From Minisyncoccia bacterium (lineage in GTDB: Bacteria; Patescibacteriota; Minisyncoccia; UBA6257; JAAZHW01): DNA of 49,062 nt. The position numbers and the translations under genes were made by a program. The stretch spans positions 1 to 49,062 of the forward strand of contig JBFEPE010000005.1 of the NCBI GenBank assembly GCA_041550235.1. Reading direction: 5' to 3'. The stretch's first letter is position 1, and each line of letters begins with the position of its first letter. The notes under the pieces were generated by a model. That model made no database searches and was not told the DNA's origin. It saw only the letters and a program-made list of their open reading frames with translations. Below are positions 5,880 to 37,550 of the stretch, piece after piece.

Positions 5880-5973
5880 CCCGCCTTCGCCAATGCTTCG
5901 GCAGGGCAATGCCCGCCTTCGCCAATGCTTCGGCAGGGCAATGCCCGCCTTCGCCAATGCTTCGGCGAGGCAA
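5880..5973 (+). repeat. Three tandem copies (32-nt period) of the CCCGCCTTCG...GGCRRGCAA element
   Basis: CCCGCCTTCGCCAATGCTTCGGCAGGGCAATG x2 plus a variant; ends 8 nt before ATG 5982. Confidence 0.9.
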
Positions 5974-5981
5974 AGAAAAAT

Positions 5982-6752
5982 ATGGAAAATGAGACAAAAT
6001 CAAAAAAAGATTATTTCTTGCCCATCTCAATAGTATTAGCGGCTGTGATAATCGCATTCGCGGTTCTCTATACAAGCGGAAAGCCCGCTGATGATAATAG
6101 CACCGGCATTTCAGAAGATGAAAAATCAATTTCTATCGCTGAAGGCGATTACATCTTGGGAAATGAAAATGCAGAGATAACAATGTTTGAGTTTAGCGAT
6201 TATGAATGCCCAGCATGTGCTGCATTTCATAGCCAAATAAGACCACTAATATTAAGTTCTTTTATAGAAGGAGGAAAAGTGAAATCAGTGTTCCGAGATT
6301 TAGCATATCATGAAGATAGTCTATTCTTATCAAACTCAGTTTGGTGTGCCGGAGAGCAGGATGTTTTTTGGGAAATACATGATTTCGTATTTGGAAAAGA
6401 ATACTCCGACGGAGAAGCACCAACAAAAGAAGTTTTGGTAGAAGAAATCAATAATTTAGGTCTGAGTGGACAAGAATTTTCAAAGTGTTTAGATGAGGGA
6501 AAATATAATCAAGTTGTCATTGATAAGACAAAAGAAGGAAGAGAAATGAGTATGCTAGCTACTCCCATTACAGTTGTCGTGAAGGGAGATGCTTTCTCAG
6601 CCAGTCCAAAATATGTTTATGATGAGTTAAAAAAGGTTTTGGATGGAATTAGCACAAGCCCTGTTATCCCAATTTCCAATGGAGTGCTTATTGTTGGAAT
6701 TCAGCCATTTGATGTCTTTCAGTCGGAAATTAATAATTTATTAGGCGAATAG
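5982..6752 (+). CDS. DsbA/thioredoxin-fold membrane-anchored oxidoreductase
   Basis: N-terminal TM helix, FSDYECPAC, ATP (cis-Pro loop equivalent), GIQPFDVF; start trimmed past the repeat. Confidence 0.9.
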   Translation: MENETKSKKDYFLPISIVLAAVIIAFAVLYTSGKPADDNSTGISEDEKSISIAEGDYILGNENAEITMFEFSDYECPACAAFHSQIRPLILSSFIEGGKVKSVFRDLAYHEDSLFLSNSVWCAGEQDVFWEIHDFVFGKEYSDGEAPTKEVLVEEINNLGLSGQEFSKCLDEGKYNQVVIDKTKEGREMSMLATPITVVVKGDAFSASPKYVYDELKKVLDGISTSPVIPISNGVLIVGIQPFDVFQSEINNLLGE

Positions 6753-6773
6753 CACTTGCTTAATCATAATATT

Positions 6774-7013
6774 ATGGCTGACAAAAAAATAAAATTATAT
6801 TCATCTCCCGGTTGTCAATATTGTATTTTAGCTGAGGAATTTCTTAGGGGCAAAGGAGTTGATTTCGAGAAAATAGATATTTCCCAAAATCCTGAAATGG
6901 CTCAAGAGATGATTCAGAAAACAGGACAAATGGGTGTGCCGGTAATAGAAATGCCAACGGGAGAAATAATGGTCGGCTTCGATCAATTAGAATTGGAAAA
7001 GTTTTTTAGTTAA
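6774..7013 (+). CDS. Glutaredoxin-like protein (NrdH/YruB type)
   Basis: YSSPGCQYC, GQMGVPVI, VGFD motifs. Confidence 0.9.
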   Translation: MADKKIKLYSSPGCQYCILAEEFLRGKGVDFEKIDISQNPEMAQEMIQKTGQMGVPVIEMPTGEIMVGFDQLELEKFFS

Positions 7014-7054
7014 TTCAGTTTATAATTTAATGAATTGATGGTGAGATGAACACC

Positions 7055-7086
7055 AAAAAGCAGGCGAATATTCCCGCCTGCTTTTT
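7055..7086. terminator. Bidirectional terminator
   Basis: AAAAAGCAGGCG...CGCCTGCTTTTT between convergent genes. Confidence 0.8.
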
Positions 7087-7154
7087 GTATCTAATCTATA
7101 TACTACTTTTAAAAATTTACTAAAAAATATAATGTATTTAAAATATAAATCTAA

Positions 7155-8150
7155 TTATTTTTTGAAAATATGCTCGCGATGATACTTGAGATATCCTCTT
7201 CTTTTTTCAATTTGAGGAATAACAAATTTTTTACCATGTGCCAAATTTAATTTCTTTATGTTGAGAGGTGAAATATATGGGGAAATTAAAATAGACCCAT
7301 CATTTTCAAATGTAATAAATCCTTGATCAAAAAGTTTGTCATAGGTAGGAGTTAAAATAATTCCATTATTATGATCAATTTTTTCCTTATCGCTTGATAC
7401 ACTCCATGGCTTAATATGACTCGCCATAAGAATTCGCTCATCATTAACTCTTGTAATAATGCACTCCGAAGACTCTTCAAGTAATCTTTGCCTATATCCA
7501 CCCTGCCCAATTCTTGCCTTAACCAATTGCTCTTTTTCTTGTTTTGACAATTTTTTTTCTTCAATAGATTTTTCAATCTGCCTTTCTTTTGCCGGATGGT
7601 AATATGGATTAAATGAATAACTTAATAATGGTCTAAAAAGAAAATAAATATTATTGCTGGTATTTTTTATCTTTAAAATTGAGACATTAGAAATAATTGG
7701 GAGCATAATATTTCTGAAATATTCCCTGAAAATATCATCATATGAACGAATAAAATATCGCGATTTATCTTTTTCGCCAATAGCCCTTTCAAAAGAAAAA
7801 TATTCTCTATTTGATAAATTTTGAAGTTCAGAATAATAACCCCGCCAGTCACCTGATATATCTTTTTGATATTTCTGCTCCTGCTGTTCATATTCAAATT
7901 TTGAGTCATTAAGATAATTTTCTAAATCTTTTTTTAAGAAAAACCCCTCACTTTTAAAATCATTGAAAAAATCATCGAAATCCATAGTCTTTTGAGACCC
8001 AACATACAAACGAGCCTCACCACTACCACGACCAATTTTATTTTTCTTAACAAACGAATCAACGATTGGGATATTATCAATCTCATCAATTACTTCAAAT
8101 ATTTCATTATCAATCTCTATTAAATTTTTTGTGTCATCAGCCATATTCAT
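7155..8150 (-). CDS. HNH endonuclease (putative restriction enzyme)
   Basis: C-terminal RIGQG...C.IT...ASHIKPW...NGIILTPTYDKLFD HNH signature; adjacent to a methyltransferase. Confidence 0.85.
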   Translation of the reverse strand: MNMADDTKNLIEIDNEIFEVIDEIDNIPIVDSFVKKNKIGRGSGEARLYVGSQKTMDFDDFFNDFKSEGFFLKKDLENYLNDSKFEYEQQEQKYQKDISGDWRGYYSELQNLSNREYFSFERAIGEKDKSRYFIRSYDDIFREYFRNIMLPIISNVSILKIKNTSNNIYFLFRPLLSYSFNPYYHPAKERQIEKSIEEKKLSKQEKEQLVKARIGQGGYRQRLLEESSECIITRVNDERILMASHIKPWSVSSDKEKIDHNNGIILTPTYDKLFDQGFITFENDGSILISPYISPLNIKKLNLAHGKKFVIPQIEKRRGYLKYHREHIFKK

Positions 8151-8161
8151 AAATAATATAA

Positions 8162-9232
8162 TTATTTAATACCCATGCTTCTTAAAATAGCCATAAAAAC
8201 ATTAACGACAATACTATTGCCCGCTTGTTTATACATCTGAGTGTCGCTCACAACAATTTTGAATCTATCATCAAAACCCATCAATCGTAAGCACTCACGA
8301 GGAGTTAATTTTCTTATTTTGCTTTTTCTTGTTATATAATTATCTACCCCAGCACGATGCATCTTTGCCATTGTCGCAAGAAGTGGGCGAGCAACAGCAA
8401 GATCTGTTTCGGGCTTACTATGAAAATTTTTTGTTCCGCTTGATAAAACATATCTCTCAACCTTATTTGATAAAAAATATTTTTCATCTACTCGTCCAGT
8501 CGGCTCAAAAACAAAATCACCATGCCAATTAAATTGCTGATTTGCTTTTTGGCAAAGCGCAATCTGCCCGTTAATTTGTGTGTATTTTTTATCTAAATTT
8601 TTTTGGCTAGTCACAAATTTTATTCCCTTTTCCGGAAGATAATATTTATTTTCAATAGCATCCTCTAATAAATCATGCATATCAATCTTCAATTCAACAG
8701 GGTCTGGAAATTTAAAATTTTTTTTATTCCTAAATCCAACCACAAAAAGACGTTCTCTATTTTGTGGTATCCCATAATCTTTCGCATTTAATATCTTATG
8801 AAAATAATTATAGCCTAATTCTTTAAATTTTTTTTCAATAGCACCCCATGTATTCCCACTATCATGACTTAATAATCCCTTTACATTTTCAAAAATGAAT
8901 ATCTTCGGTCTTATCTCATCAATAAGCCTAGCAAATTCATAAAACAAAGTGCCTCGAGAATCTTTAAACCCTCGTCTTTTCCCCACCATTGAAAATGACT
9001 GACAGGGTGTTCCGCCAACAAATAAATCAATCTTACCTTTAAACTTCTTGCCATCTATATCCTGAACCAAATCAAACCAACGAGAATCATCGATGTCATA
9101 ATTGGCGAAAAAACTTTTTTTTACATGTGGATCGTTGTCGCAAGCAAAAATCAACTTGTGCTCAACCTTCATCCTCTTTAAAGCATGCTCTATTGCCCCG
9201 ATTCCACTAAATGCCGTTGCTAATTTCAACAT
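8162..9232 (-). CDS. DNA (cytosine-5)-methyltransferase
   Basis: FSGIG, GGTPCQSFS, ENVKG, QNRER, GNS motifs. Confidence 0.97.
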   Translation of the reverse strand: MLKLATAFSGIGAIEHALKRMKVEHKLIFACDNDPHVKKSFFANYDIDDSRWFDLVQDIDGKKFKGKIDLFVGGTPCQSFSMVGKRRGFKDSRGTLFYEFARLIDEIRPKIFIFENVKGLLSHDSGNTWGAIEKKFKELGYNYFHKILNAKDYGIPQNRERLFVVGFRNKKNFKFPDPVELKIDMHDLLEDAIENKYYLPEKGIKFVTSQKNLDKKYTQINGQIALCQKANQQFNWHGDFVFEPTGRVDEKYFLSNKVERYVLSSGTKNFHSKPETDLAVARPLLATMAKMHRAGVDNYITRKSKIRKLTPRECLRLMGFDDRFKIVVSDTQMYKQAGNSIVVNVFMAILRSMGIK

Positions 9233-9283
9233 AATAAATTTATTATATTTTCATTTATGAAATAAAATAATTTTCCCTTACTT

Positions 9284-9346
9284 TGCTATTTTATCACACC
9301 CCCAATACCTAAACTTGACTAATTTATTTGATTATGATAATCTAAT
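9284..9346. promoter_or_regulatory. Bidirectional promoter module duplicated at 13222-13284
   Basis: 26-bp exact match AAACTTGACTAATTTATTTGATTATG plus TATCACACCC, gapless at offset 3938. Confidence 0.7.
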
Positions 9347-9403
9347 GTTAGGTTTGGGGGAACAAATACCCCGATGATACAAACAAAAATAGGAGGTGTT
9401 ATT

Positions 9404-10900: not shown

Positions 10901-10914
10901 AATCAAACAACGAC

Positions 10915-10955
10915 GGGCAAAGGTTGTCACAAAAACCTTTGCCCATTTTTTATTT
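10915..10955 (+). terminator. Intrinsic terminator
   Basis: GGGCAAAGG...CCTTTGCCC followed by ATTTTTTTATT. Confidence 0.75.
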
Positions 10956-10977
10956 CAAAAAATCCTAAATTAAAAAA

Positions 10978-13215: not shown

Positions 13216-13346
13216 AATATCTGCCATTCTATCACACCCAAAATCCCAAAACTTGACTAATTTATTTGATTATGGTGATTTAATACCGATTTCTTATTTT
13301 TTATCATAGATTTGACAAAAGAGTGATTTATGTTTTTTTGAAAGAC

Positions 13347-13496
13347 TTATCCACAGCAAATCCACTGAATTGATGTTTGGTAAATTTGTTGGTTTTGTAT
13401 TATTATATGTATGATAATACCGATTTTTATTTGAAATTATTGAATTATTTAATTGATGTGTGAATATCTTTATTGTTTGGAATAAGTTGTGGATTA
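13347..13496. promoter_or_regulatory. DnaA-box cluster (upstream part of probable oriC)
   Basis: Perfect TTATCCACA at 13347-13355, TGTGGATTA at 13488-13496, degenerate boxes between; non-coding and upstream of dnaA. Confidence 0.65.
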
Positions 13497-13587
13497 TTGT
13501 TTTTGGTTGTTGAAAAATCAATAAAAAAACAGCCCCACCACTTAGATAATGGGTGGGGGGGTTGAATAAATGATGGCCAATGATCTA

Positions 13588-13815
13588 TTAATTATTTTTT
13601 GATTTGAGTTTAAAATCCAAACCAATAAAAAAAATTGAAATACCAATAATTATCGTTATTAAAACAATTACCGAATCTTTGGTTTGACTAATTTTGTTTA
13701 AAAAATCATATAATTCCTTTATTATAAAATGGTAACTAATAACCAATAATCCAATAATCATCAAAAACCATCCTAAAAATCCATTGATTTTGTTTTGTTT
13801 TTCGCTTTTTTTCAT
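13588..13815 (-). CDS. Small orphan 2-TM membrane protein
   Basis: Two hydrophobic helices; TTGACT promoter and AGGAGG SD; terminator-like hairpin at 13523-13561. Confidence 0.7.
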   Translation of the reverse strand: MKKSEKQNKINGFLGWFLMIIGLLVISYHFIIKELYDFLNKISQTKDSVIVLITIIIGISIFFIGLDFKLKSKNN

Positions 13816-13912
13816 GATATCCTCCTATAATAAATAATAACACAAGATTAAAAAAAGTCAATACTTACTTTTTTCTTGGGACGGAGTATAATTATAAAAT
13901 ATATAAATTATT

Positions 13913-15301: not shown

Positions 15302-15313
15302 AATTAAAAATAT

Positions 15314-15470: not shown

Positions 15471-15516
15471 TAGTAGAATAAGTTTGGGGATAAGAAGTTG
15501 TAATAAAAACAAAAAT

Positions 15517-17058: not shown

Positions 17059-17072
17059 TAAATTAATTAAAA

Positions 17073-18697: not shown

Positions 18698-19162
18698 CTA
18701 ATTAACCTCTAAAATCTGATACTTTCTCTTGTCGCCGTTCGGCAACTCAAACTCAATCTCTTCGCCGGCTGACCTACCAATAAATGCCTGTCCTAATGGA
18801 GAGGTGTTTGAAATTAAATTTTTTGATGGGTCGCCATCATGAGCACCAACAATAGTGAAATTTTTTATTTCACCCTTCTCTGTCTTTGCCTTTATTTTAC
18901 ATCCAATACTCACGGACGAGCATTTTTCACCACTGCCATCCATAATTTTAGCTGATTTTAAGATATTTGCTAATTCTGATATTCTCTTTTCATTCATCGC
19001 TAAGTCTTCTTTGGCAGCTGAATAATCGGCATTTTCTGACAAGTCACCAAGTTCTTTGGCTATCCTTAATCTCTCGCCAATATCCGCCCTTATCTTAATT
19101 TTTCTTTCTTCCAATTCCTTTTTTAATTGTTCAAATTTTTCCTTTGATATATATGTTGTCAT
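18698..19162 (-). CDS. greA: Transcription elongation factor GreA
   Basis: GDLSENADYSAAK, ISNTSPLGQA. Confidence 0.97.
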   Translation of the reverse strand: MTTYISKEKFEQLKKELEERKIKIRADIGERLRIAKELGDLSENADYSAAKEDLAMNEKRISELANILKSAKIMDGSGEKCSSVSIGCKIKAKTEKGEIKNFTIVGAHDGDPSKNLISNTSPLGQAFIGRSAGEEIEFELPNGDKRKYQILEVN

Positions 19163-19170
19163 ATTTTTCC

Positions 19171-19200
19171 TTCGCCCGCCGAAGTTTTAACGAAGGCGGG
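19171..19200 (-). repeat. CCCGCCTTCG element upstream of greA
   Basis: Sense strand CCCGCCTTCGTTAAAACTTCGGCGGGCGAA, then GGAAAAAT-ATG. Confidence 0.85.
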
Positions 19201-19233
19201 TCCTATTAAGAGCCATGTTTTAAAAAATACCAT

Positions 19234-19542
19234 CACACCTCCTCCCCGCGAAGCGGGGAGGAGGTGTGTGCTTCTAATTTTTATTTCCTTAATATTTTTA
19301 TACCATTATTATAATAAATAAGCAATTATAATTCAAAGTCTCTCGGCACTTTGAATTAGTAATTTTGAAATGATGAGATATCCCCCCTCGCCGTAGGCGA
19401 GGGGGGATATCGTAATATTCCACATCAGTGCTTTGAATTAGCGATTATTGAGGTGATACGATCCCCCCTCGCCGTAGGGCGAGGGGGGATAATTGATGGT
19501 GCTATAATCAAAATCCTGCCACCTGCAGATGGTGGCAGGATT
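19234..19542. repeat. Cluster of hairpins including a degenerate ~80-bp tandem duplication
   Basis: Hairpins at about 19234, 19330, 19378, 19461, 19512; CTTTGAATTAG...ATCCCCCCTCGCCGTAG occurs twice. Confidence 0.75.
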
Positions 19543-25665: not shown

Positions 25666-25766
25666 TTTTCTATTCTATCAGATATCTTTCTTATTTCAAT
25701 ATAATTTGATTAGCAAAGATGATGTCTTATTCTCATCTGTCATCTCATCATGTTTTTCGCACCTTC

Positions 25767-25853
25767 TGTCACCCCTGCGAAGGCAGGGGTCTAAAGAGAT
25801 GGCAAGCGAATGATAGTAGTGGGATTGAGATTCCCGCCTTCGCGGGAATGACA
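25767..25853. repeat. REPIN/dRS3-like paired palindrome element (copy 2, inverted)
   Basis: GTCACCCCTGCGAAGGCAGGGGTC-spacer-GATTCCCGCCTTCGCGGGAATGAC. Confidence 0.8.
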
Positions 25854-27070: not shown

Positions 27071-27187
27071 TATGATAATTTTACACCATTTCCCCTTTTT
27101 TAGAAAATGAATCACCACATTAGAATTAAAAAAAGCCAAGATTTGTTATATTTTGTTCGGGATACGAAAAATAGAGTTAATATATCT

Positions 27188-27280
27188 CCCCGCCCGCCTT
27201 TGGCGGATCTTATAATCTCCCTCTAATAGAGGGGTGGCTCGCCTCTTGGCGAGACGGGGTGTTTATTCCGCCGAAGGTAG
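27188..27280. repeat. Cluster of short GC palindromes
   Basis: CCGCCTTTGGCGG, CCCTCTAATAGAGGG, CTCGCCTCTTGGCGAG. Confidence 0.55.
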
Positions 27281-27967: not shown

Positions 27968-29035
27968 CTAATCAGCCAAGGCATACTTCCTATTATCCAA
28001 CCTCTTAAACAATCTCTTGTCTTGGAGGTTAATAAGAATTGTTGCATCTTTCACATTTCTTTGCTTTTGAACAATATCCACTAACTGCTCAAAAGTTTTA
28101 CTTCCCTTATTTAATGCCTTCACCAATAATTCCTTAACTGTTCCCTCTTCAAAGCCCCAATTCTTTAAGGCATAAACACCCCTTCCTACCAAAACAAACT
28201 CCGGCATTTTAATTAACTCATTATGAGTGGTGGATGCTTGCGCTTTTTTATTATCCTCAAAATTAACCTCGTTTATTGCATCGGCAATTTTAGAAAAGTG
28301 CATTGGCTTTCCTTTTTTTTCCAAAACCAAATATGCCTTATCGCCAACATTTGTTGGGGATATCTTAGACCAATTACTCAAACCAAATTCATAAAATGGA
28401 TTAAAAGCAAAATCTTTTGAAACATCTAAGTAAGAAGTAACCGCCTGCTCATTCTTTATTGAAAGAGTTTTCATTATTTTTCTCAATAATTCTTGATACT
28501 CATCCAACTTAAGAGGCCTGTTCGCCTTCTTCAATTCCTTATGGCACATCTTGTGAACAGAGTCCATCTTTCTTACCGAGTCCTTATCGCTATACCATGC
28601 AGAATGTCTATTTGGCTTCTCAAAAAGATAATTGAAATATGGTGCTAAAGACAAAACAAAAACAAGATGGCTTTTAACTGTCTCTTTGTCAGCATCCTTT
28701 TTCAAGGACTGAATAGGATCATCAACAAATGAATGGGTTGCCTCTTCTAAAAGCAATGACTCTCTTCTTAAACCACCCAAAACTTCTATTTGACCCTTCA
28801 ATTTGTTTACAAGATCATTTAGATCTTTGATATTTTTTCTTAAAACATCTAATGCTCCCGCCTCAATTTGTCTTATTCTTTCTCGGGTAACTCCATTTTG
28901 ACGACCGATAGCCTCCAGTGTGAGAGGCTTATCACCTGTCAATCCAAATCTTTTCTCAACAACATTCTTCTGTTTCTCTGACAGAATATCGATGAAATCA
29001 TTTAATGTTCTAATTAAGCTTTCTTGGTTAATCAT
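27968..29035 (-). CDS. Sigma70 region-4 HTH plus HARE-HTH (RNAP delta-like) domain protein
   Basis: TLEAIG...VTRERIRQIE; KPMHFSKIA...HNELIK...FVLVGRGVYAL. Confidence 0.8.
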   Translation of the reverse strand: MINQESLIRTLNDFIDILSEKQKNVVEKRFGLTGDKPLTLEAIGRQNGVTRERIRQIEAGALDVLRKNIKDLNDLVNKLKGQIEVLGGLRRESLLLEEATHSFVDDPIQSLKKDADKETVKSHLVFVLSLAPYFNYLFEKPNRHSAWYSDKDSVRKMDSVHKMCHKELKKANRPLKLDEYQELLRKIMKTLSIKNEQAVTSYLDVSKDFAFNPFYEFGLSNWSKISPTNVGDKAYLVLEKKGKPMHFSKIADAINEVNFEDNKKAQASTTHNELIKMPEFVLVGRGVYALKNWGFEEGTVKELLVKALNKGSKTFEQLVDIVQKQRNVKDATILINLQDKRLFKRLDNRKYALAD

Positions 29036-29116
29036 ATTTTTATAATTTTTATAAGTTTAACAAAAATAAATAATTATGTCAAGGGGGTAAAAACCCTTTA
29101 ATAATCAGGGTTAAAA

Positions 29117-29398
29117 TTATGAGACCCTTGCCCTCTTTGGATTCCGAAGGAGTTTTTTGATGTTGGCTAAATCCTCTCCCCCCTTTAATATACCAGCCCT
29201 TCTTAATTGTTTTATCTGCTCTCGCATTTTTAATTTATAAACGGCTGATTTCTTTAATTGATTTTTGCTTGGCTTTTTCTTTAAAAATCTTTGAGACTTA
29301 GATTCCTTTAATACCCCGCTTTGGATAACGGACCTATTAAATCTATAGATGAATGATTGTAGTGGCTCATCTTTTTTTCTTTTTACCTGTATTGGCAT
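29117..29398 (-). CDS. rpsU: 30S ribosomal protein S21
   Basis: VKRKKDE...RF.R.V..SGVLKE....F..KPS; next to a HIT gene; start trimmed past the repeat. Confidence 0.8.
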   Translation of the reverse strand: MPIQVKRKKDEPLQSFIYRFNRSVIQSGVLKESKSQRFLKKKPSKNQLKKSAVYKLKMREQIKQLRRAGILKGGEDLANIKKLLRNPKRARVS

Positions 29399-29406
29399 AT
29401 TTTTCT

Positions 29407-29467
29407 TTGCCCGCCATAGTCTTGACGAAGGCGGGATTCGCCTCGCCATAGTCTTGACGAAGGCGGG
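29407..29467 (-). repeat. Two tandem CCCGCCTTCG elements upstream of rpsU
   Basis: CCCGCCTTCGTCAAGACTATGGCG(A)GGC x2, then AGAAAAAT-ATG. Confidence 0.88.
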
Positions 29468-29475
29468 TTCTAATT

Positions 29476-29793
29476 CTAATTGCTTGTGATGTGTAGGTGG
29501 ATATGAAAAACTTCTTGACCACCACCCCTTCCGACATTAAATTGAAGTTTATAACCTTTTTGATAAAAATTCAAGTCCCTTGCTGTTTTTGCTGCGACAA
29601 GTATTAACTTGCCAATCAATTCTACATCATTTTTTTCTAAGTCGTCTATCGTAGCGATGTGTTTTTTGGGAACAACCAATAAGTGAATTTTTGCTTTTGG
29701 GTTGGCATCTTTAAAGATAATCAAATCGTCATCTTCAAAAATAATTTCAGATGGAATTTCCTTATTTATTATTTTACAAAATACACACTCCAT
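29476..29793 (-). CDS. HIT-family (Hint) nucleotide hydrolase
   Basis: CVFCKI, HLLVVPKKH, GQEVFHIHLH. Confidence 0.95.
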   Translation of the reverse strand: MECVFCKIINKEIPSEIIFEDDDLIIFKDANPKAKIHLLVVPKKHIATIDDLEKNDVELIGKLILVAAKTARDLNFYQKGYKLQFNVGRGGGQEVFHIHLHITSN

Positions 29794-29801
29794 TTTTTAC
29801 T

Positions 29802-29890
29802 TTGCCCGCCATAGCCCGCCAGAGGCGGATATTCTACCTTGGCGAAGGCGGGTTATTTATTTTCCTGCCCGCCCGCCTTTGGCGGGCGAA
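29802..29890 (-). repeat. CCCGCCTTCG element with a nested 22-nt insertion, plus an adjacent palindrome
   Basis: CCCGCCTTCGCCAAGG[TAGAATATCCGCCTCTGGCGGG]CTATGGCGGGCAA then AGTAAAAA-ATG. Confidence 0.8.
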
Positions 29891-30078
29891 TAGAATACTT
29901 CTTTGATTACAACATCGCCACTCCTCCGACAAAGTCGGAGGAGTATAAAATTAATTTATTATTAATATAGCATATATTTTTATTTCAGTAAAGAACGGGA
30001 AGGCGACACACCCCCATGGAGTGGGGGAGTGTGATGAGCATTATTTGGCAAAGAGCAAGCATTGACAAAAAAATCCCC

Positions 30079-31524
30079 TCACGGGAGTGAGGGGATTTTG
30101 ATGGTGAATTTTGTTCCTGATGAATCGCTACTCTCTACAAATATTTTGCCCTTAAAATCTTTTTCTATAATTCCCTTCACAATAGCCAATCCAATACCAA
30201 TTCCATCTTTATAATTTTTTGTAGAGAAAAATGGATTGAAAATATTTTTCAAATTTTCCTTACTTATTCCAATGCCGTTGTCTTTAACTGATATTACCAC
30301 ATCTCCATTATCACGAGTTAATCTCACAATTATTTTCTTATCAAAATCATTTGCCACCCTCATATCGCGATACGAATCAATGGCATTGCTTATCAGATTA
30401 GCCATCACTTGACTAAACTTTACCGGATTTCCAATAATACTAATTTTCTCATCACTCAAAAAATCAACTTCTATTTCAAATTTTCTAATCTTATAACTCA
30501 ATATTTCTATTACTTGAGAAATTTCTTTGTTCAAAGAAAATTTTCTCTTAATTTCTTTTTGGCTAATTTGTTTCTTTACTGCCAAAACAAAACCTTCTAT
30601 TCTTTTTGTCGTAGAGACTGCTCTATCTAAATAAAATTTTGCCTCACTGAAACTATTTGAATTATCTTCTTTCAATTTTTGAATATTTAAAGAAAGGGCA
30701 GTGAGCGGATTTATTAAATCATGAAATAATCCAGCAGATATTTTTCCTAATTCTGAAAATCTATAAAGTTGGCTCATCTGTTTCATTTGTGCTTCTCGCA
30801 ATTCTCTTGTTCTCTCCTCAACCCTTCTTTCCAAAGATGCCTTTTCTTTCCTCAATGCTTTTTCCGACCGCCTCGCCCTTTTCAATGATTTCTTTATCTC
30901 CCGATTAGACAGCCACGAGATTATTGTGATAATAGATAGAATAATTATATAAATTATTATATCACTATTATCTAAAGATTTATTTTTCCATGAATCATCA
31001 AAAATTATTAAATTTTTTACCTGCAAATAATTTATTACATACATCAAGAGCGAGGTGGCCATTAAGAAAACAAATGCGAGGCGAGAACTAATCAAAATGC
31101 TTGCCATAACAATCACTAATGAATAAAAGATTAAAACTGCTGGCAAGTCTGTTCCCCAATGATAATTTGCATAACCCACCAACAAGAAAAAGAAAGAAAT
31201 AAAAAGATAAGAAGAAATTTTTGCCAAACCGAATCTCGATAATAAATATATGACGACAAAGAATAAGAAAATAGAGCCGAATAAAAGCAAAGAAAATCCC
31301 GTGTATTCATCAGGTGTCGTTGATTTTTCAATAACAGCCCCTATAAACCCAACTCCATAAAGAATAATAATCCCCAACAACAAAATATTTAAAATAAATT
31401 CTCTTCGGGCGGAATCCTCATTTCTTAATCTTGGTCTTATTAATTTTTCAAACAAAAAACGAGCACTTCCCAAGAGTGTCTTTTTAAATTTCAAAAAAAT
31501 TTCTTCTCTTGGGAAGTTGCTCAT
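30079..31524 (-). CDS. Membrane-bound sensor histidine kinase
   Basis: About six TM helices, H-box FHDLINP, N-box NAID, DNGIG, F-box, GIGL. Confidence 0.93.
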   Translation of the reverse strand: MSNFPREEIFLKFKKTLLGSARFLFEKLIRPRLRNEDSARREFILNILLLGIIILYGVGFIGAVIEKSTTPDEYTGFSLLLFGSIFLFFVVIYLLSRFGLAKISSYLFISFFFLLVGYANYHWGTDLPAVLIFYSLVIVMASILISSRLAFVFLMATSLLMYVINYLQVKNLIIFDDSWKNKSLDNSDIIIYIIILSIITIISWLSNREIKKSLKRARRSEKALRKEKASLERRVEERTRELREAQMKQMSQLYRFSELGKISAGLFHDLINPLTALSLNIQKLKEDNSNSFSEAKFYLDRAVSTTKRIEGFVLAVKKQISQKEIKRKFSLNKEISQVIEILSYKIRKFEIEVDFLSDEKISIIGNPVKFSQVMANLISNAIDSYRDMRVANDFDKKIIVRLTRDNGDVVISVKDNGIGISKENLKNIFNPFFSTKNYKDGIGIGLAIVKGIIEKDFKGKIFVESSDSSGTKFTIKIPSLP

Positions 31525-31734
31525 TTTAAATTAATGCCAAGGCATAAATAAATCAGAGGTCGTGCCTAGAATCAAAGGCAAAAACGAAACTTTTCGAACA
31601 GACTTGCTGGTAAGGATTTTTTTAATAATCTCCTTCATATTCAATTTTCTGATTGAAATTAATCAATCATGGGTTTTTAATTTTCGACTTTTTTGCCTCT
31701 GATAAGGGCATCAAAATAGCCTTTTACTGGAAAA

Positions 31735-32406
31735 TTAATTTCCATCTATCTTATAACCTCTTCCCGGCACCGTTTTTATTAATTTTGTCTTCTTATTGCC
31801 ATCAATCTTTTTCCTAAGATTGAGTATATGCATTCCAATAACTCCCGAATTCTTTTTCAAATTTTTCCCCCAAATTCTCTCAGTAATCATTGCGCGGGAT
31901 ACCATTTTTCCTTCATTCTCCATCAAATATTCTAATAAATAAAATTCTTTTTGCGTGAGGGATATTTCCTTGTCGCCCCTCTTTACCGAGCATGCATCCC
32001 TGTCTAATAATAAATCGCCAACTAAAATCTTATTACCCTTCATTTCACTTGACCTGCGAATCAGAGCATTTATTCTTGCCAATAATTCTTTGAAAGAAAA
32101 TGGTTTTGTTAAATAATCATCTGCTCCAGCCGAAAGAAGGTCTATCTTGTCGCTCACCCCCGATTTAACTGATAGCATTATAATTGGCACCGTTCTGCCG
32201 GATTGTCTTGTTTGTTGGCAAACCCATTTGCCATCTTTCTTTGGCATTGAGTAATCCAATACAACTAAATCATAATGATTATTCATTATCATTTGGATTC
32301 CCTTTTCTCCATTGTCGGCGACATCTACTAAAAAACCTTCGGCTTCTAAGCTAATTGATAAGAATTCTAAGATTCCTACTTCGTCATCAATCAATAATAT
32401 TTTCAT
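31735..32406 (-). CDS. OmpR/PhoB-family response regulator
   Basis: Receiver (IDDE, LD, GADDYLTKPF) plus winged helix (TVPGRGY). Confidence 0.96.
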   Translation of the reverse strand: MKILLIDDEVGILEFLSISLEAEGFLVDVADNGEKGIQMIMNNHYDLVVLDYSMPKKDGKWVCQQTRQSGRTVPIIMLSVKSGVSDKIDLLSAGADDYLTKPFSFKELLARINALIRRSSEMKGNKILVGDLLLDRDACSVKRGDKEISLTQKEFYLLEYLMENEGKMVSRAMITERIWGKNLKKNSGVIGMHILNLRKKIDGNKKTKLIKTVPGRGYKIDGN

Positions 32407-32568
32407 ATTTAATATTGAAGTTTAAATTATGAATATGGGATATTGAGAAAGTTTGATATTATCCCTTCTCAATATTTTGTGTGACTTAAAAATATTTTTT
32501 TGATATTAAATTCTAAATAAATAAAACATCCTTATTATTAAAGCATATTTTTCCCCTTTTTTAAATGG

Positions 32569-32577
32569 TGTGGATAA
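32569..32577 (-). promoter_or_regulatory. Perfect DnaA box upstream of polA
   Basis: TGTGGATAA about 50 bp upstream of the extended -10 TGCTATAAT (32624-32632). Confidence 0.5.
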
Positions 32578-32639
32578 TTTATAAATAAAAAAATCCCTCT
32601 GCTTTTATGATTAAATTAAATAATGCTATAATTTAAATA

Positions 32640-35246
32640 ATGAAAGAGACAAAAAAATTGGTTATTATTGATGCTCATGCTCTAATCCACCGCTCCTTCC
32701 ATGCCCTACCACCATTCACATCACCCGAAGGCAAGCCAATTGGAGCAGTTTTTGGCACGGCTAGAATTTTAATAAAATTGATTAAAGATTTAAATCCGGA
32801 CTATATGGCCGCCTGCTTTGATTTGGCAGACCCAACATTTCGTCATCAAGAATTTGAAGATTATAAGGGAAAAAGAGAGAAAGCACATGACGATTTAATT
32901 GCTCAATTTGAACCAGCAAGAGAATTATTTGAGACAATGGGAATACCCCAATTTGAAAAACCGGGATTTGAGGCCGATGATTTAATTGGCTTTTTAGTGA
33001 AAAAATTTAAAAATGTCACTGATAAAATAATAATTGCTACAGGCGACTTAGACACACTTCAATTAGTTGATAATGATAAAGTTATTGTTTATACCCCCAA
33101 GAAGGGGCTTCAAGAAACAATGTTCTATGATGAAAAAGCAGTATTTGAAAGATATGAACTTTTGCCATCCCAAATGAATGACTTTAAGGGATTGAAGGGC
33201 GATCCATCCGACAATATTCCCGGAGTGATTGGAATTGGCGAAAAAGGAGCAATCAAAATTTTGAAAAAATTTAATAATTTAGAAAATTTATATAAAGAAA
33301 TAGAATCGCCGAATTTTAAAACAGATAAAATCATCACAGATAAAATAAAGGAAAAACTTTTGAGTCAGAAAGAGCAAGCAATGTTTAGTAAATATTTAGC
33401 GACAATAGAAACAAATATTGACATTGAGGCAAATTTGGAAGATTTAAAATTTGAATTTCCATCAAAAGAAAAAATATTACCCCAATTAGAAAAATGGGGA
33501 TTTAATAGTCTTATAAAGCAATTAGAAAATAGTTTTTTTAACTCAGAAAGCAATAAAGAATCATCTGCTCAACAAAAAGAAGTTGAAGAATTTATTATTT
33601 CAGAAAAAATTGACGAATTATTAAATTTAATATCAGAGGAAAAAAATTTAGTTATTTATTTTGATGACGAAAAAAAAGAGATTAGCATTCTTTTGAAAAA
33701 TAAAGATAAGAGATTTTTGATTTCTGCCAATAAAGATAATCTAAAAAAATTAGAGCCAATTTTATCAGATAAAGAAATATCGAAGGTTGGATATGACTTG
33801 AAGGAATTGATTAAATATCTTTTGAATTTTGATATAAAAATCAGCGGGATAAAAAATGATATCAAAATTTCTCAATGGCTAATAGGGTCTGATGTTAAAA
33901 AATATTCTTTGGAAGAAATTGCTCAAAAAAATGGAGTATCAATTTCTTCTTTTGTTCCCGATGGAATAAACAAAATTCATCAAAGGCAATTATCTAAAAT
34001 AAAAGATATGGGATTGGAAAATGTTTTGGGGAATATTGAAATTCCCTTGATTTCTGTTCTTTCAAGAATGGAAAAGGACGGCATTAGCATTGATGAGGAA
34101 TATTTTAAAAAGTTAAGCGAAGAAATAACTGATGAAATAATTCAATTAGAAAGGGATATTTTTAAATTATCTGGAAAAGAATTTAATATCTCATCGCCGA
34201 AGCAATTATCAGAAATTCTTTTTGAGCATCTAAAAATATCATCTAAGGGAATAAAGAAAACACCCGGCGGAGCAATTTCCACCCGAGAAAGTGAGTTGGA
34301 AAAAATGGAATCATCCCATCCTGTTATAAGGCATATTTTAAAATTTCGGGAATTATCTAAGCTGAAAAATACATACATTGATTCATTGCCCAATAATATT
34401 GATCCTAAAACAGGCCGAATACACACTACATTTAATCAGGTTGGCACTGCCACGGGAAGATTATCGTCCGAGGAACCAAATCTTCAAAACTTACCTGCCC
34501 GAAGTGATTGGGGAAAAAGAATACGGTCAGGATTTGTTTCCGGTAAAAATAAATTATTTTTAAGTTTAGATTATTCTCAAATTGAACTTCGTGTCGCCGC
34601 CTCCCTATCAAATGATAAGAAAATGATTGAGGCATTTCGAAATGGGCAGGACATTCATACCATCACGGCTTCCGAAATAAATAATGTTGAGGTGGATAAG
34701 GTAACAAAAAAAATGAGACGAGATGCAAAAACATTGAATTTTGGAATTCTTTATGGAATGGGAGCAAGAGCATTTTCTCAAACTGCTGGGGTTTCAGTTT
34801 CCGAGGCAAAAAAATTTATAGAAGAGTATTTTAAAAATTTTGAGGCGATAAAGGTTTGGCAAGAGGAGATATTAAATTTTGCTAGAAAAAATGGATTTGT
34901 GGAGACTATTTCAGGTAGAAAGAGGTGGTTGGATGACATCACTTCGTCTAATCAAAGAGTTAGGGCAATGGCGGAAAGAATGGCAATAAATTTTCCCGCT
35001 CAGGGGCTATCGGCCGATATTATCAAAACGGCAATGATTGAGATTAGTGATTTTATTATTGATAATAATTTATCTAATAATATATCTATGCTTCTTCAAG
35101 TTCATGATGAGTTGGTCTTTGAGGTTGATGAGGGTATTATTGATAAGGCGGAAAATGATTTAAAAAAAATAATGGAATCCGCCTTTTCTCTCGAGAATGT
35201 CTCTCTCAAGGCGGACTCCAAATTTGGTCAAAATTTAGGATTTTAG
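32640..35246 (+). CDS. polA: DNA polymerase I
   Basis: 5'-3' exonuclease (EADD, GDPSDNIPGV) and polymerase A motifs DYSQIELR, K..NFGILYG, QVHDE. Confidence 0.98.
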   Translation: MKETKKLVIIDAHALIHRSFHALPPFTSPEGKPIGAVFGTARILIKLIKDLNPDYMAACFDLADPTFRHQEFEDYKGKREKAHDDLIAQFEPARELFETMGIPQFEKPGFEADDLIGFLVKKFKNVTDKIIIATGDLDTLQLVDNDKVIVYTPKKGLQETMFYDEKAVFERYELLPSQMNDFKGLKGDPSDNIPGVIGIGEKGAIKILKKFNNLENLYKEIESPNFKTDKIITDKIKEKLLSQKEQAMFSKYLATIETNIDIEANLEDLKFEFPSKEKILPQLEKWGFNSLIKQLENSFFNSESNKESSAQQKEVEEFIISEKIDELLNLISEEKNLVIYFDDEKKEISILLKNKDKRFLISANKDNLKKLEPILSDKEISKVGYDLKELIKYLLNFDIKISGIKNDIKISQWLIGSDVKKYSLEEIAQKNGVSISSFVPDGINKIHQRQLSKIKDMGLENVLGNIEIPLISVLSRMEKDGISIDEEYFKKLSEEITDEIIQLERDIFKLSGKEFNISSPKQLSEILFEHLKISSKGIKKTPGGAISTRESELEKMESSHPVIRHILKFRELSKLKNTYIDSLPNNIDPKTGRIHTTFNQVGTATGRLSSEEPNLQNLPARSDWGKRIRSGFVSGKNKLFLSLDYSQIELRVAASLSNDKKMIEAFRNGQDIHTITASEINNVEVDKVTKKMRRDAKTLNFGILYGMGARAFSQTAGVSVSEAKKFIEEYFKNFEAIKVWQEEILNFARKNGFVETISGRKRWLDDITSSNQRVRAMAERMAINFPAQGLSADIIKTAMIEISDFIIDNNLSNNISMLLQVHDELVFEVDEGIIDKAENDLKKIMESAFSLENVSLKADSKFGQNLGF

Positions 35247-35291
35247 GTTTTTGAGATTTGTGTTATAAATATAAAATAAAGATAAATAAAT

Positions 35292-35364
35292 GGGCATGTA
35301 GCTCAGGTGGTAGAGCATTTCGTTGACATCGAAAAGGTCAGAGGTTCAAGTCCTCTCATGCCCA
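35292..35364 (+). tRNA. tRNA-Val(GAC)
   Basis: Cloverleaf: GGGCATG/CATGCCC acceptor, TTTCG-TTGACAT-CGAAA anticodon arm, GTTCAAG T-loop. Confidence 0.95.
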
Positions 35365-35372
35365 CTCCCTCC

Positions 35373-36422
35373 CTACCTTCTTAAATACTTATTTCTTGCT
35401 AAATTATGTTGCTCTAATGTTGCAGAGAAAATTGTTTTTCTTGTCTTTGGGTCGGAAATATAATACCAATATGAACTATCCTCTGAATTGATAGTTGCTC
35501 TAATTGCAGAAATACCAGGGTTGCCAATTGGACCAACGGGCAATCCTAATCTCGTATAAGTATTATAGGGGGAATCTTTTTTCAAATCACTATTCTTTAA
35601 GCTTCTACATCCGTAACCCTCATTCTCAATGAAGCACTTATAATAAACAATCGTTGCATCAATTTGTAGCGGCCAATTGTTCCCCAATCTCTTGTGAATA
35701 ATATCACTCACCAAAACTCTATCTTCAAAAAATGGTGCCTCTGCCTCAATTAGAGAAGCAATGATTATTGATTTTAGCAATGAGAAATTTTCTTTGTCGC
35801 TAGCTTCTTTAAAATTTGAAAAGAATTTGTCTTCAAAATTTTCTAAGAATTTTATTGCAATATCTCTTGATAGGGAATTTGTTTCAAATTCATAAGTGTC
35901 AGGGAATAAAAGCCCTTCCAAATTATTTTCCTGAGGAAATTCCCTCAAGAAACTAAACTTATCAGAAAAATCGCCGATTTTTAATTCGGTGAGTTTTCTG
36001 CCGGTGATAACTCCTTTCTCTGAGAGTTTGTTCTCAACCATTTGTATTGTCCATCCTTCAGGGATAGTAATTTTTACATTTTCTTGATTTCCTCTTTTGG
36101 TAATAATATTAGCAATTTCTCGGCTGTTGCCTCCGAATAGCAAATCATATACCCCCGGATTTATTTTTGATATCCTTCCCTTAACCAGCAAATAAAGTTT
36201 GAATGCTGATGATGACCTTATCAAGCCACTATCCTCCAACCTTTCGGCAACAGAAGAAGCTCCCTCGCCTTCCTTTATAACAAAGAGACCGTTATTGTCG
36301 GTATTTATTAGGTTGCTATCTATATTTGCTGATACAGGGCTTAATTGATAATAGAAAAATAGCCCGTAACAGGAGAATACAAATAAATAAAGTAATATTA
36401 TTAGTGAAAATAATTTTTGCAT
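35373..36422 (-). CDS. mltG: Endolytic transglycosylase MltG
   Basis: TIPEG, LEGLLFPDTY, ASLIEAE, LQIDAT, SPYNTY..GLP.GPI.NPG. Confidence 0.95.
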   Translation of the reverse strand: MQKLFSLIILLYLFVFSCYGLFFYYQLSPVSANIDSNLINTDNNGLFVIKEGEGASSVAERLEDSGLIRSSSAFKLYLLVKGRISKINPGVYDLLFGGNSREIANIITKRGNQENVKITIPEGWTIQMVENKLSEKGVITGRKLTELKIGDFSDKFSFLREFPQENNLEGLLFPDTYEFETNSLSRDIAIKFLENFEDKFFSNFKEASDKENFSLLKSIIIASLIEAEAPFFEDRVLVSDIIHKRLGNNWPLQIDATIVYYKCFIENEGYGCRSLKNSDLKKDSPYNTYTRLGLPVGPIGNPGISAIRATINSEDSSYWYYISDPKTRKTIFSATLEQHNLARNKYLRR

Positions 36423-36461
36423 ATTTTTTTGATATTAACACAATTTAAATAAAATGTCAAA

Positions 36462-37514
36462 TTATAGGAATTTGTCAATAAAGAATATCACTAATCCAAT
36501 AGAGCAGAAAATAGCAGATAAAATCCAAAATCTCATTGTGATTTGTGTTTCTGGCCAGCCCAGTGCTTCAAGATGATGGTGGATTGGGGCAGAAATAAAA
36601 ACCTTCTTTTTTCTTATTTTTTTACTTGCAATTTGAATAACGGTGGATAGTGCTTCTATTATTAAAATAAATCCAAAGAAGGGCAAGAGAAGTGAAGTGT
36701 CGGTTATCATTATTATAATTCCCAGAGTAATTCCTAATGACATTGCTCCTGTGTCACCCATAAAGAATTTTGCTGGGTATATATTGAACCAAAGAAAGGC
36801 GGCTAATCCCCCCGAGATAATTGCAGTGAGGGCGGCTAAATCATATTTTCCTTGGACGAAGGCAACTGCTCCTAATGATAAGTAAGAAAAGAGAATAGTT
36901 CCTCCTGCTAATCCATCTAATCCATCTGTTTGATTTGTGGCAAATGCGACAGCAATAATAACGGCCATAAAAAATGGGATATACCAAAATCCTAATTCTA
37001 AATCTCCTAATAGGGGAATGTGAATGCTACTCCAATCTAATTTAAAGAAAAACCAAACTGCTCCTACTAATGCGATAGCAGAGAATAGAATTATTTTGTG
37101 AGAAACTTTTAGCCCTCCTCCGCTCGGCCCTATTTTTAATATTCCTAATATATCATCAAAAAGTCCGATAAGGGCTGCGATAATCAAAGCGAATAGGGGA
37201 AGATATGTTTCTGGCCTGCTGATAAAATTTAAATATTCAAATACTCCATCAAAAAAATATGATAATATCCAAAAGATAAGTGCTAAAATTGCTGTGGTGA
37301 GCCAAATTATTATTCCTCCCATTGTTGGGGTGCCTTCTTTCTTAGAGTGGAGTTTTGTGAATATTGGTGTATCTCCATCTCCTCTTATTTGCTTGCCTAC
37401 CTTCATTTTTTTTAGAAATTTAATAAGAATAGGAGCAGAGATAATTGCTACTACAAATGATAATGTTGATAAGATTAGAATCCTTGTTAATTCACCTAAT
37501 ATTTCAAATTCCAT
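36462..37514 (-). CDS. mraY: Phospho-N-acetylmuramoyl-pentapeptide transferase
   Basis: K.GTPTMGG, DD, NQTDGLDGL, FMGDTG, APIHHH. Confidence 0.97.
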   Translation of the reverse strand: MEFEILGELTRILILSTLSFVVAIISAPILIKFLKKMKVGKQIRGDGDTPIFTKLHSKKEGTPTMGGIIIWLTTAILALIFWILSYFFDGVFEYLNFISRPETYLPLFALIIAALIGLFDDILGILKIGPSGGGLKVSHKIILFSAIALVGAVWFFFKLDWSSIHIPLLGDLELGFWYIPFFMAVIIAVAFATNQTDGLDGLAGGTILFSYLSLGAVAFVQGKYDLAALTAIISGGLAAFLWFNIYPAKFFMGDTGAMSLGITLGIIIMITDTSLLLPFFGFILIIEALSTVIQIASKKIRKKKVFISAPIHHHLEALGWPETQITMRFWILSAIFCSIGLVIFFIDKFL

Positions 37515-37520
37515 ATTTCT

Positions 37521-37550
37521 TTGCCTCGCCGAAGTTTTAACGAAGGCGGG
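37521..37550 (-). repeat. CCCGCCTTCG element upstream of mraY
   Basis: CCCGCCTTCGTTAAAACTTCGGCGAGGCAA then AGAAAT-ATG. Confidence 0.85.

Follow-up and report, generated by a model that had tools for sequence, protein, structure and literature searches.

The window analysed here, a 49,062-nt stretch that makes up contig C5 of a Minisyncoccia genome (G000; 759,907 bp in 41 contigs, 33% G+C, 97% complete), carries a short hairpin unit directly upstream of the start codons of five genes. We compared it with a second, congeneric genome representing a sister species (G001; 723,107 bp in the 120 of 140 contigs that were read, with C121–C140, ~35 kb, outside the comparison). An earlier note on this DNA had counted eight copies of the unit at five loci; all eight were found at the positions claimed, each on the coding strand of the gene behind it. 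The genes, the units and the larger blocks that contain them are as follows.

5880–5911, 5912–5943 and 5944–5975, + strand: array of three 32-nt units before the dsbA-like gene; the last ends ..GGCGAGGCAAAG, and the linker AAAAAT lies at 5976–5981
5982–6752, + strand: thioredoxin/DsbA-like gene; Rcas_1661-family thioredoxin-like model at E = 3e-33, below the cut-off of that model; weak DsbG match
18698–19162, − strand: greA (TIGR01462, residues 4–154 against model positions 1–151)
19170–19200, − strand: single greA unit, CCCGCCTTCGTTAAAACTTCGGCGGGCGAAG; linker GAAAAAT at 19163–19169, ATG at 19162; no unit at the orthologous site of G001
19166–19283, − strand: 118-bp greA block of terminator-like hairpin, spacer and unit; not in G001, by alignment
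29117–29398, − strand: S21-like gene of 93 aa (previously called rpsU); PF01165 at E = 2.2e-4, 21.3 bits against a cut-off of 27, residues 4–52
29436–29467 and 29405–29435, − strand: S21-like array of two units, spanning from the HIT stop codon to the next ATG (29398); linker AAAAAT
29476–29793, − strand: HIT-family gene (HinT models, residues 2–103)
29800–29852, − strand: HIT unit whose loop contains a further hairpin, TAGAATATCCGCCTCTGGCGGG; linker TAAAAA, ATG at 29793; not in G001
29802–29948, − strand: HIT block of ~147 bp, made up of the unit and two other hairpins, bounded by a conserved promoter-like TATATT on one side and by the HIT leader on the other; not in G001
36462–37514, − strand: mraY (TIGR00445, above cut-off, residues 25–343, from model position 3)
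37519–37550, − strand: single mraY unit, CCCGCCTTCGTTAAAACTTCGGCGAGGCAAAG; linker AAAT, ATG at 37514

Read on the sense strand, the unit consists of CCCGCCTTCG, six variable bases (TTAAAA, TCAAGA or CCAATG) and CT(TC/AT)GGCG(A)GGC(G/A)AAG. Its 3′ half can be written stepwise as CTTCGG or CTATGG, CG(A)GGC and (G/A)AAG, after which come an A-rich linker (AAAAAT, GAAAAAT, TAAAAA or AAAT) and the ATG. Array units are 32 nt each, and when the element is counted to ..GGC(G)AA the gaps to the ATG are 8, 8, 8, 8 and 6 nt, as previously reported. The unit had also been called palindromic; it is indeed a hairpin, but its palindrome is imperfect, with arms CCCGCC / GGCG(A)GG and an inner G-xy-AA-y′x′-C, to which the palindrome is lengthened by paired variation of the six loop bases (TT..AA, TC..GA, CC..GG, CT..AG). 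All three loops of the dsbA-like array read CCAATG, and the equivalent array of G001 is likewise three units long, its loops reading CCAAGG. The main unit begins with (A)CCCGCCTTCG and lacks a GTAG or CGTC foot tag; CGTC occurs in variants (CCCGTCTTCG, C17) and in another hairpin class, CGTCCCAGCCACGT.. With at most one mismatch, CCCGCCTTCG has 17 matches in the window against 0.42 expected, and 9 of the 17 belong to other hairpin classes (terminator-like and NTS-like modules) away from start codons.

The position of the units relative to the genes depends on the start codons, and the possibility had been raised that the true starts lie elsewhere. Protein domains and the species comparison place them at these ATGs: Pfam or NCBIfam domains begin at residues 1–9 in GreA, HIT, L13, L9, S13, L18, RpoC, NusA, GrpE and Adk, and similarity between G000 and G001 sets in at the ATGs of the genes that carry a unit. 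Mechanically called open reading frames (ORFs) extend 5′ into the repeats through ATGs inside the units (29117–29449, 36462–37565 and 5925–6752), and gene callers may therefore set starts too long in such genomes. The layout requires no repeat-borne ORF overlapping a neighbouring stop or start, and the in-frame AATG of the dsbA-like array is incidental. The gene named rpsU resembles S21 only weakly: its PF01165 match lies below the Pfam cut-off and is joined by no NCBIfam match.

Mapping of the copies in both genomes relative to start codons, a check proposed in the earlier note, revealed a bias of distance as well as of orientation. We defined an element-type 3′ end as a stem-closing tetramer followed by GGC(GAGG/GGG/AGGG/GGGG)Y-R-A-N-N, and called it start-adjacent when an ATG that opens an ORF of 50 aa or more stood 4–13 nt downstream of it. 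Intergenic, orientation, Shine–Dalgarno (SD) and −10 statistics used a crude gene set of 637 ORFs of at least 100 aa, taken from the first ATG. By these rules 34 of 87 element 3′ ends in G000 and 30 of 84 in G001 are start-adjacent, whereas 20,000 random intergenic positions put through the identical test pass in 2.9% of cases, and in 0.5% for a spacing of 6–7 nt. The 64 start spacings are dominated by 6 nt (24) and 7 nt (20), followed by 4 nt (6), 8 nt (5), 9 nt (3), 10 nt (2), 13 nt (2), 5 nt (1) and 11 nt (1). An A-rich target does not by itself explain this position, because few element-free intergenic motifs of the same kind precede a start (78 of 1794 for AAAAAT and 4 of 96 for RAAGWAAAA). 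The remaining 3′ ends run into the next tandem unit (13 in each genome), into a second module class (8 in G000, 7 in G001) or into other sequence (32 and 34), and many of this last group are a distinct composite ending GGCAGGGCAATG joined to CCCGTC... In this composite, which is present in many copies that are not start-adjacent (window 27186–27275; G000 C1:1473, C2:14583, C16:16626 and others), a unit ending GGCAGGGCAATG is joined to CCCGTCYCGCC..GGCGAGCCACCCCTCTATTAGAGGG.

Orientation is similarly skewed. The gene downstream of the 74 non-internal 3′ ends of G000 is co-oriented in 61 cases, opposed in 10 and unknown in three; between co-oriented genes there are 26 sense and 3 antisense copies. 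By gap type, the G000 copies fall into divergent (31), co-oriented (29) and convergent (5) gaps. The 34 carrier genes of G000 include those for ribosomal proteins (L13, S9, L9, L18, S13 and the S21-like protein), transcription and translation factors (RpoB, RpoC, EF-Ts, NusA, GreA), chaperones (GrpE, Hsp20), other enzymes and related proteins (a class II aminoacyl-tRNA synthetase, RNase III, adenylate kinase, HIT, DsbA-like, ferredoxin) and envelope or membrane proteins (a MurA-like enzyme, a Mur ligase, MraY, FtsX, a MacB-like permease, a Na/Ca exchanger), with others such as a TrwB-like protein. In rplM + rpsI and in rpoB + rpoC, consecutive cistrons are each preceded by a unit, and many copies therefore lie inside operons. 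A separate case is found at G000:C2:31690–31760 and at G001 L070:9950–10010, where a unit with a GAAG-AAAAAT tail is followed not by an ATG but by ..CCCGTTTCTGCACATTGCTTGTTGCTTTGTGCAAAAA, conserved in the two species. This sequence may be a small RNA or a decayed gene; an Rfam search for a candidate RNA gene behind the unit at G000:C2:31701 gave no match.

Alignment to orthologous loci without the element, which had likewise been proposed, yielded clean pairs of empty and filled sites. Among 35 start-adjacent cases of G000 checked in G001, 14 were shared, 12 were absent with an AT-rich leader in their place, two were absent with another GC block and seven were uninformative; the reciprocal check of 30 G001 cases in G000 gave 13, 14, two and one, respectively. 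The two species thus differ by presence or absence at 30 start-adjacent sites (14 + 16), and about half of the sites are filled in one and empty in the other. Filled and empty alleles have the last 0–13 nt before the ATG in common (mode 6), and because odd bases (GAAGTAATAAAT, AATCCAAT, AAC) recur in both alleles, the proximal linker is native to the site. No SD motif was seen in the AT-rich empty leaders, and the element therefore did not replace one. The greA leaders of 18 further relatives contain no such element.

The loci of the window illustrate this turnover. Contigs from two other samples (runs X2 and X3) join 19165 directly to 19284, giving an empty greA allele in which seven letters fit both sides; the position of the greA block is ambiguous by these 7 nt because the direct repeat AAGGAAA stands on both flanks. 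One X3 contig also skips 29798–30023, the HIT region. The X2 and X3 contigs may derive from a G001-like population and for this reason do not count as independent of G001. At HIT, where a promoter-like site is predicted at 29992–29964, G001 lacks ~147 bp between the promoter-like TATATT and the leader AGTAAAAAAATG. The S21-like gene has two units in G000 and three in G001, with different loops, and the first G001 unit abuts the HIT stop codon. At mraY, both species have a unit, and G001 has in addition a 58-nt insert between the unit and the ATG and a further module upstream. Direct repeats are visible by eye at some other sites (AGGA, AAGA, AAGAAA) and not at HIT; the flanks are of low complexity and A-rich. 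We also considered that the multi-module greA and HIT blocks had been copied from another locus by recombination, and rejected this because only the unit in them has paralogues.

Units are further found nested in the loops of other units, and a small TGTC-tagged hairpin occupies several loops. At two orthologous sites, one species has a CCCGCC.. hairpin and the other a CGTC-tagged hairpin (GCCACGT..ACGTGGC), in both cases before a common GGCGAGGC-RAAG, linker and ATG. The tandem copies had been taken as a sign of repeated insertion at one target, an explanation that mostly fails: among 20 pairs of adjacent array units, 14 share one loop sequence (9 of 11 in G000, 5 of 9 in G001), compared to ~15% of random pairs. 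Local duplication or conversion is therefore the main way in which arrays lengthen, with a second insertion as the occasional alternative.

To place the unit beyond these two species, we used a genus-level pattern, CCCGCCTTCG-N6-7-CTWYGGCR, and an exact pattern, CCCGCCTTCG-N6-CTTCGGCGAGGCRAAG, the latter searched in a collection with one genome per species. The genus-level pattern has 46 occurrences in G000 and 49 in G001, a single one in each of 2 of 39 other relatives of the family or order, and none in the other 37. The exact pattern has 39 loci, of which 17 lie in a single Paceibacteria assembly and 22 are single copies. By title, these 22 come mostly from the candidate phyla radiation (CPR): Collier-, Roizman- (3), Staskawicz-, Wildermuth-, Yanofsky-, Magasanikii- and Saccharibacteria, Minisyncoccia, Paceibacterota (2) and the Patescibacteria group (5); the other titles are Gammaproteobacteria (2), Pseudomonadales (1), Pacearchaeota (1) and "bacterium" (1). 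The unit thus exists across the CPR at low copy number, and in this genus it has multiplied to about 50. For three of the 22, the whole 272-nt locus is open in one sense frame, which at L237 codes for a TrmD domain, at L234 for an Fpg H2TH domain and at L252 for a weak Mur-ligase match that stays below the Pfam cut-off; in these three frames the unit adds ~11 residues, PAFAKASARRR or PPSLKLRRGKV. By eye, further copies lie within other coding regions. An SD-like AAGGAGG, AAGGGGGG or GGGGTGA directly follows the unit in 3–4 of the 22 (L232, L258, L240 and perhaps L253), the L269 unit abuts a tRNA, and the L235 unit lies within the loop of another hairpin. Single copies in many lineages, some of them inside genes, point to the behaviour of a selfish mobile sequence and not to a lineage-specific regulator. 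A phage origin was considered and dropped, the exact pattern having no match in viral contigs.

A search for a partner enzyme, for which REP-associated tyrosine transposase (RAYT)/HUH and GIY-YIG proteins had been suggested, came out against the first and in favour of the second. PF01797 (RAYT) has no match in the 97% complete G000, with the control matching in 6 of 14 genomes; PF00078, which would indicate spread by reverse transcriptase, has none in G000 or G001; and PF04480 (DUF559) gave no match either. Small GIY-YIG ORFs, by comparison, number four in G000 and two in G001. One of them, G000:C8:19116, forms a cassette (C8:19050–19470, L185) that adjoins the 3′ end of a tRNA gene and has the last 13 nt of that tRNA repeated behind it; the counterpart tRNA of G001 is without a cassette. 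A hairpin closes the cassette at each end, the two being inverted relative to each other: the left one reads ATCCTTCGCTAAAGCTACGGAAT and the right one, read on the other strand, TATCCTTCGTTAAAACTTCGGAATA. Of 201 genomes of the order, 137 have homologues of the cassette; multiple copies are frequent, as are copies with stop codons. The four closest (L186–L189; 70–82% identity by tblastn) come from other, distant families of the order, and each of them stands behind the 3′ end of a tRNA, with different tRNAs involved. All five cassettes begin with the hairpin (A)ATCCTTCGCTAAAGCT(A/T/G)CGGAAT, the far-end inverted copy is complete in two of the five (one of the four homologues) and partly seen in the other three, and a duplicated tRNA 3′ end of 13–15 nt stands behind four of the five (three of the four homologues). 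In the one cassette family examined, an 18-nt core, CCTTCGCTAAAGCTACGG, is identical between the cassette ends and unit variants such as CCCGCCTTCGCTAAAGCTACGGCAGGGC. The units may therefore be solo derivatives of the cassette ends, or substrates alongside them. The nearest solved relative of the cassette protein is a UPF0213 protein (1zg2, E = 3e-4).

The translation context bears on what an insertion before a start codon would do. The 16S gene of G000 (C30:457–2021, minus strand), in which GGAUCA is followed by the tail UCUAAAGAUGAAUUAG, ends in ..GGAUCA and UCUAAAGAUGA instead of GGAUCACCUCCUU; it contains no CCUCC, and the anti-SD is absent. The same holds for all 17 readable 16S tails of the order, G000 and G001 included (L215–L231), none of which has CCUCC after GGAUCA; G024 has a lone CCTCC ~100 nt further on. 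The description of this organism as SD-poor fits its 16S, but not its messages: GGAGG is sharply enriched at −13..−8, where 63 of 614 genes without the element have such an SD-like site. The carrier genes belong to the SD-less class. Among 496 SD-less genes, 104 TATAAT-like hexamers end 6–8 nt before the ATG, a peak which suggests that many genes are leaderless or have very short leaders; empty alleles of G001 offer examples. No complementarity of GGAUCAUCUAAAGAUGA leaders to the 16S tail was seen; a pyrimidine tract ~70 nt further on, which may lie outside mature 16S, could pair with AAAGAAA and, by wobble, with GGAGG. We also rejected a layout in which a −10 box abuts the element and the unit forms the whole 5′-untranslated region (5′-UTR), as the left flanks of 21 first units are merely A-rich, TATAAT-like hexamers stand at no fixed distance and units lie inside operons.

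Of the two explanations offered in the earlier note, an element inserted by mobile machinery is well supported by the 30 species differences, the nesting, the copies in other lineages and the core in common with the cassette, whereas a structured substitute for the SD gains nothing from a sense-strand fold that is modest and weaker than the antisense fold. Most likely, then, the unit is a small mobile DNA element and not a ribosome-binding device. More specifically, we put at about 0.5 the probability that it is a short, non-autonomous mobile hairpin, akin to repetitive extragenic palindromic (REP) sequences, MITEs (miniature inverted-repeat transposable elements) and Rickettsia palindromic elements (RPEs), that lands strand-specifically in the A-rich tract before starts and is tolerated there. 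A GIY-YIG nuclease, or another enzyme acting on single-stranded DNA, would move the hairpins; insertion would be specific for one strand and directed into the purine- or A-rich tract ahead of the start codons of SD-less genes. The last 3–13 native bases of the A-rich leader are retained. The element would be co-transcribed within the leader or the intercistronic gap, probably with little effect on expression. Being no terminators and leaving the start region free of pairing, copies would persist before starts, and, as the 16S lacks an anti-SD, initiation on the carrier genes would never have needed an SD.

Several observations weigh against this reading. Each species difference may be either a gain or a precise loss, because no outgroup carries the family. 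Some of the insertions are blocks of several modules in which all but the unit is unique, so they may be the sum of several events or deletions between short repeats. The 3′ junction is not one fixed base, as the native suffix ranges from 0 to 13 nt. Targeting and random insertion followed by selection look alike in these data, and the carriers are mostly heavily used genes, as a beneficial RNA role would likewise predict. The link to GIY-YIG is an 18-nt core in one cassette family, the arms differ (ATCC/GGAAT in the cassette, CCCGCC/GGCGAGG in the unit), and the units match a published motif for hairpins of such a nuclease system, the Ssn-related motif, in 0 of 53 cases. Mobility is read from sequence comparison, and the enzyme is a proposed partner. 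Finally, the gene set behind the statistics is crude (ORFs of at least 100 aa from the first ATG), and the comparison with G001 covers 120 of its 140 contigs.

One competing explanation, which we regard as improbable though deserving of full consideration, is that the unit acts as a functional leader RNA: hairpin and RAAG-A-rich linker would be a portable 5′-UTR or intercistronic module that aids the downstream gene, by protecting the mRNA 5′ end or a processed cistron from nucleases, by keeping the start open or by offering a standby or loading site without SD pairing, with mobility a mere means of spread. The strict sense orientation and narrow spacing are what such a role would produce, as is the concentration on highly used transcription, translation and envelope genes, consecutive cistrons included. 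Loss of the anti-SD, which PMC9297842 describes for part of the Parcubacteria, would leave room for it. The mean unpaired probability over −10..+10 is slightly higher in 35 carrier leaders (0.66) than in 144 other genes (0.54), with linker and ATG unpaired. Yet the two species, with coding 5′ ends that are mostly 90–100% identical, disagree at about half of the sites, so no given gene depends on the element, and in other lineages the unit also sits in coding regions and beside tRNAs. Folding is modest: single units with linker and ATG reach −9.1, −11.7 and −14.3 kcal/mol on the sense strand (z = −1.8, −1.0 and −1.9) and −11.2, −15.1 and −16.9 kcal/mol on the antisense strand, so that the sense fold is weaker by 2.1–3.4 kcal/mol, and the structures predicted over −60..+40 vary from copy to copy. 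The paired loop changes (TT..AA, TC..GA, CC..GG, CT..AG) would suit a conserved RNA stem, but they leave a 2-nt loop and fit a DNA palindrome equally well. A scan of the window against Rfam 15 found four tRNAs only and no family matching the unit. Thus, strict orientation and core-gene carriers keep a functional role alive, whereas turnover, the weak sense fold and the in-gene copies elsewhere speak against a required one.

A second explanation, to which we give a similarly low standing, dispenses with targeting. Insertion would be random, and in a compact genome survival would require that a copy damage neither promoters nor coding sequence and that the start behind it stay A-rich and unpaired; the pile-up at starts would then reflect survivorship, because the 3′ end of this subfamily happens to supply an A-rich unpaired region. 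In line with this, other module classes of the genome are mobile yet not start-adjacent, G+C is low at −30..−1 of the 614 other genes, the RAAG and linker are partly borne by the element at some sites (C3 48688 and C8 7980, with a native suffix of 3–4 nt), and copies in other lineages lie in many kinds of place. The 30 species-specific and presumably young copies are start-adjacent, but they were picked as such and carry little weight. More telling are the gaps: sites upstream of promoters or behind genes should be at least as permissive, and yet convergent gaps hold 5 copies to the 31 of divergent gaps. The 26:3 orientation bias also goes unexplained, as a near-palindrome in an A-rich tract is no terminator in either direction.

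A hybrid of these ideas, in which a mobile hairpin has been co-opted as a portable, SD-independent module for initiation or stability, with hairpin, RAAG and an A-run 6–7 nt before the AUG marking or protecting the starts of core genes, seems to us a little more doubtful still; were it true, the spread of the hairpin would amount to an ongoing rewiring of the leaders of ribosomal, RNA-polymerase and cell-envelope genes. A terminator or attenuator that ends or pauses upstream transcription, or gates read-through, is very improbable: the units are GC-rich intergenic hairpins and some blocks, such as that of greA, contain true terminator-like hairpins with T-runs, but the sense hairpin of the unit precedes an A-run and not a T-run, no terminator-like call fell on the units scanned in 29000–38000, and units lie inside ribosomal-protein and rpoBC operons and are rare in convergent gaps.

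We also compared the unit with known families of small repeats. REPs and bacterial interspersed mosaic elements (BIMEs), including the CGTC-tagged REPs reportedly described by Di Nocera and colleagues in 2013, resemble the unit in being short, GC-rich, imperfect palindromes with tens of copies, mosaic or nested clusters and fast turnover, and are thought to move as single-stranded hairpins. They differ in being found with a RAYT/Y1 transposase gene, in bearing a GTAG or CGTC tag and in lying behind genes or between convergent ones, none of which applies to the unit; it stands 5′ of genes, in the sense direction, beside start codons. For a MITE one would expect terminal inverted repeats matching those of an autonomous element and a target-site duplication of fixed length. 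The 18-nt core of the unit recurs at the ends of a cassette, in the one family examined and with different arms, and direct repeats of 4–7 nt flank some sites. RPEs, said to have been described by Ogata and colleagues in 2000, are selfish repeats of a reduced genome, ~100–150 bp long and found in frame within genes. The in-frame copies in TrmD and Fpg of other CPR lineages recall them, although RPEs are longer and the unit precedes genes in this genus.

Among families that lie within operons, the mycobacterial interspersed repetitive units (MIRUs; Supply et al. 1997, via PMC3184786) are described in that review as 40–100-bp GC-rich sequences oriented with the genes, with tandem numbers that vary between strains, empty and filled sites, short direct repeats and ends touching stop and start codons. 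The unit is similarly intercistronic, co-oriented and variable in tandem number, as in the gap between HIT and the S21-like gene (2 vs 3 units). MIRUs as portrayed there, however, carry small ORFs overlapping their neighbours and are unrelated in sequence, while units nest and occur within genes elsewhere. According to the same review, Neisseria REP2 and the Borrelia plasmid inverted repeat, of 120–180 bp, supply a promoter, a ribosome-binding site and the ATG. Like the unit, these families stand directly upstream of many genes in the sense direction and form the leader up to the start codon; unlike them as described there, the unit is 32 nt long and has no promoter, and the ATG and the last 3–13 nt are native.

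A further parallel is the SsnA system (Chenal et al. 2025, PMC11893778), in which oriented NTS/Ssn hairpins flank the gene for a GIY-YIG single-stranded-DNA nuclease in a manner resembling an insertion sequence. Unit-like hairpins flank the GIY-YIG gene of the C8:19116 cassette and of its four homologues in comparable fashion, complete at the far end in two and partial in three. The parallel has limits. None of 53 units overlaps the Ssn-related motif as given there, HGTCWYN(0-2)YYVSBRHN(0-5)WNVSBRGN(0-2)RNCYNB, all seven matches in the genome being other modules, one of which reads TGTCATTCCCGCGAAGGCGGGAATCT, and the GIY-YIG protein here has UPF0213 (1zg2) as its nearest solved relative. As a separate observation, hairpins at window positions 3697–3722, 3739–3762, 25765–25790 and 25829–25852, with TGTCATTCCCGCGAAGGCGGGAATCT as an example, fit Neisseria NTS/dRS3 and the Ssn-related motif almost exactly.

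In the open-access literature we found no description of such repeats in CPR bacteria. Small palindromic repeats are usually described behind genes, whereas this family piles up in one direction within a helical turn of the starts of essential genes. The pile-up occurs in an organism without an anti-SD, and its members come and go between sister species. It lends itself as a natural experiment on the amount of structure that an SD-less leader tolerates, and the units and cassettes together make a candidate system of hairpins and a small GIY-YIG nuclease for the movement of DNA in CPR bacteria.

Two minor observations concern the translation context. By eye, the 16S tail begins with a small hairpin that shows paired changes across genera (CAUCU-AAA-GAUG, AUCUU-UAA-AGGAU and AUUCU-AAA-AGGAAU). 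Genes with GGAGG often have a TTTAAAAATTWAAAA-like motif 5–15 nt upstream of it (window 815, 3537, 27391 and many others), which may serve in the promoter, in processing or as an enhancer.

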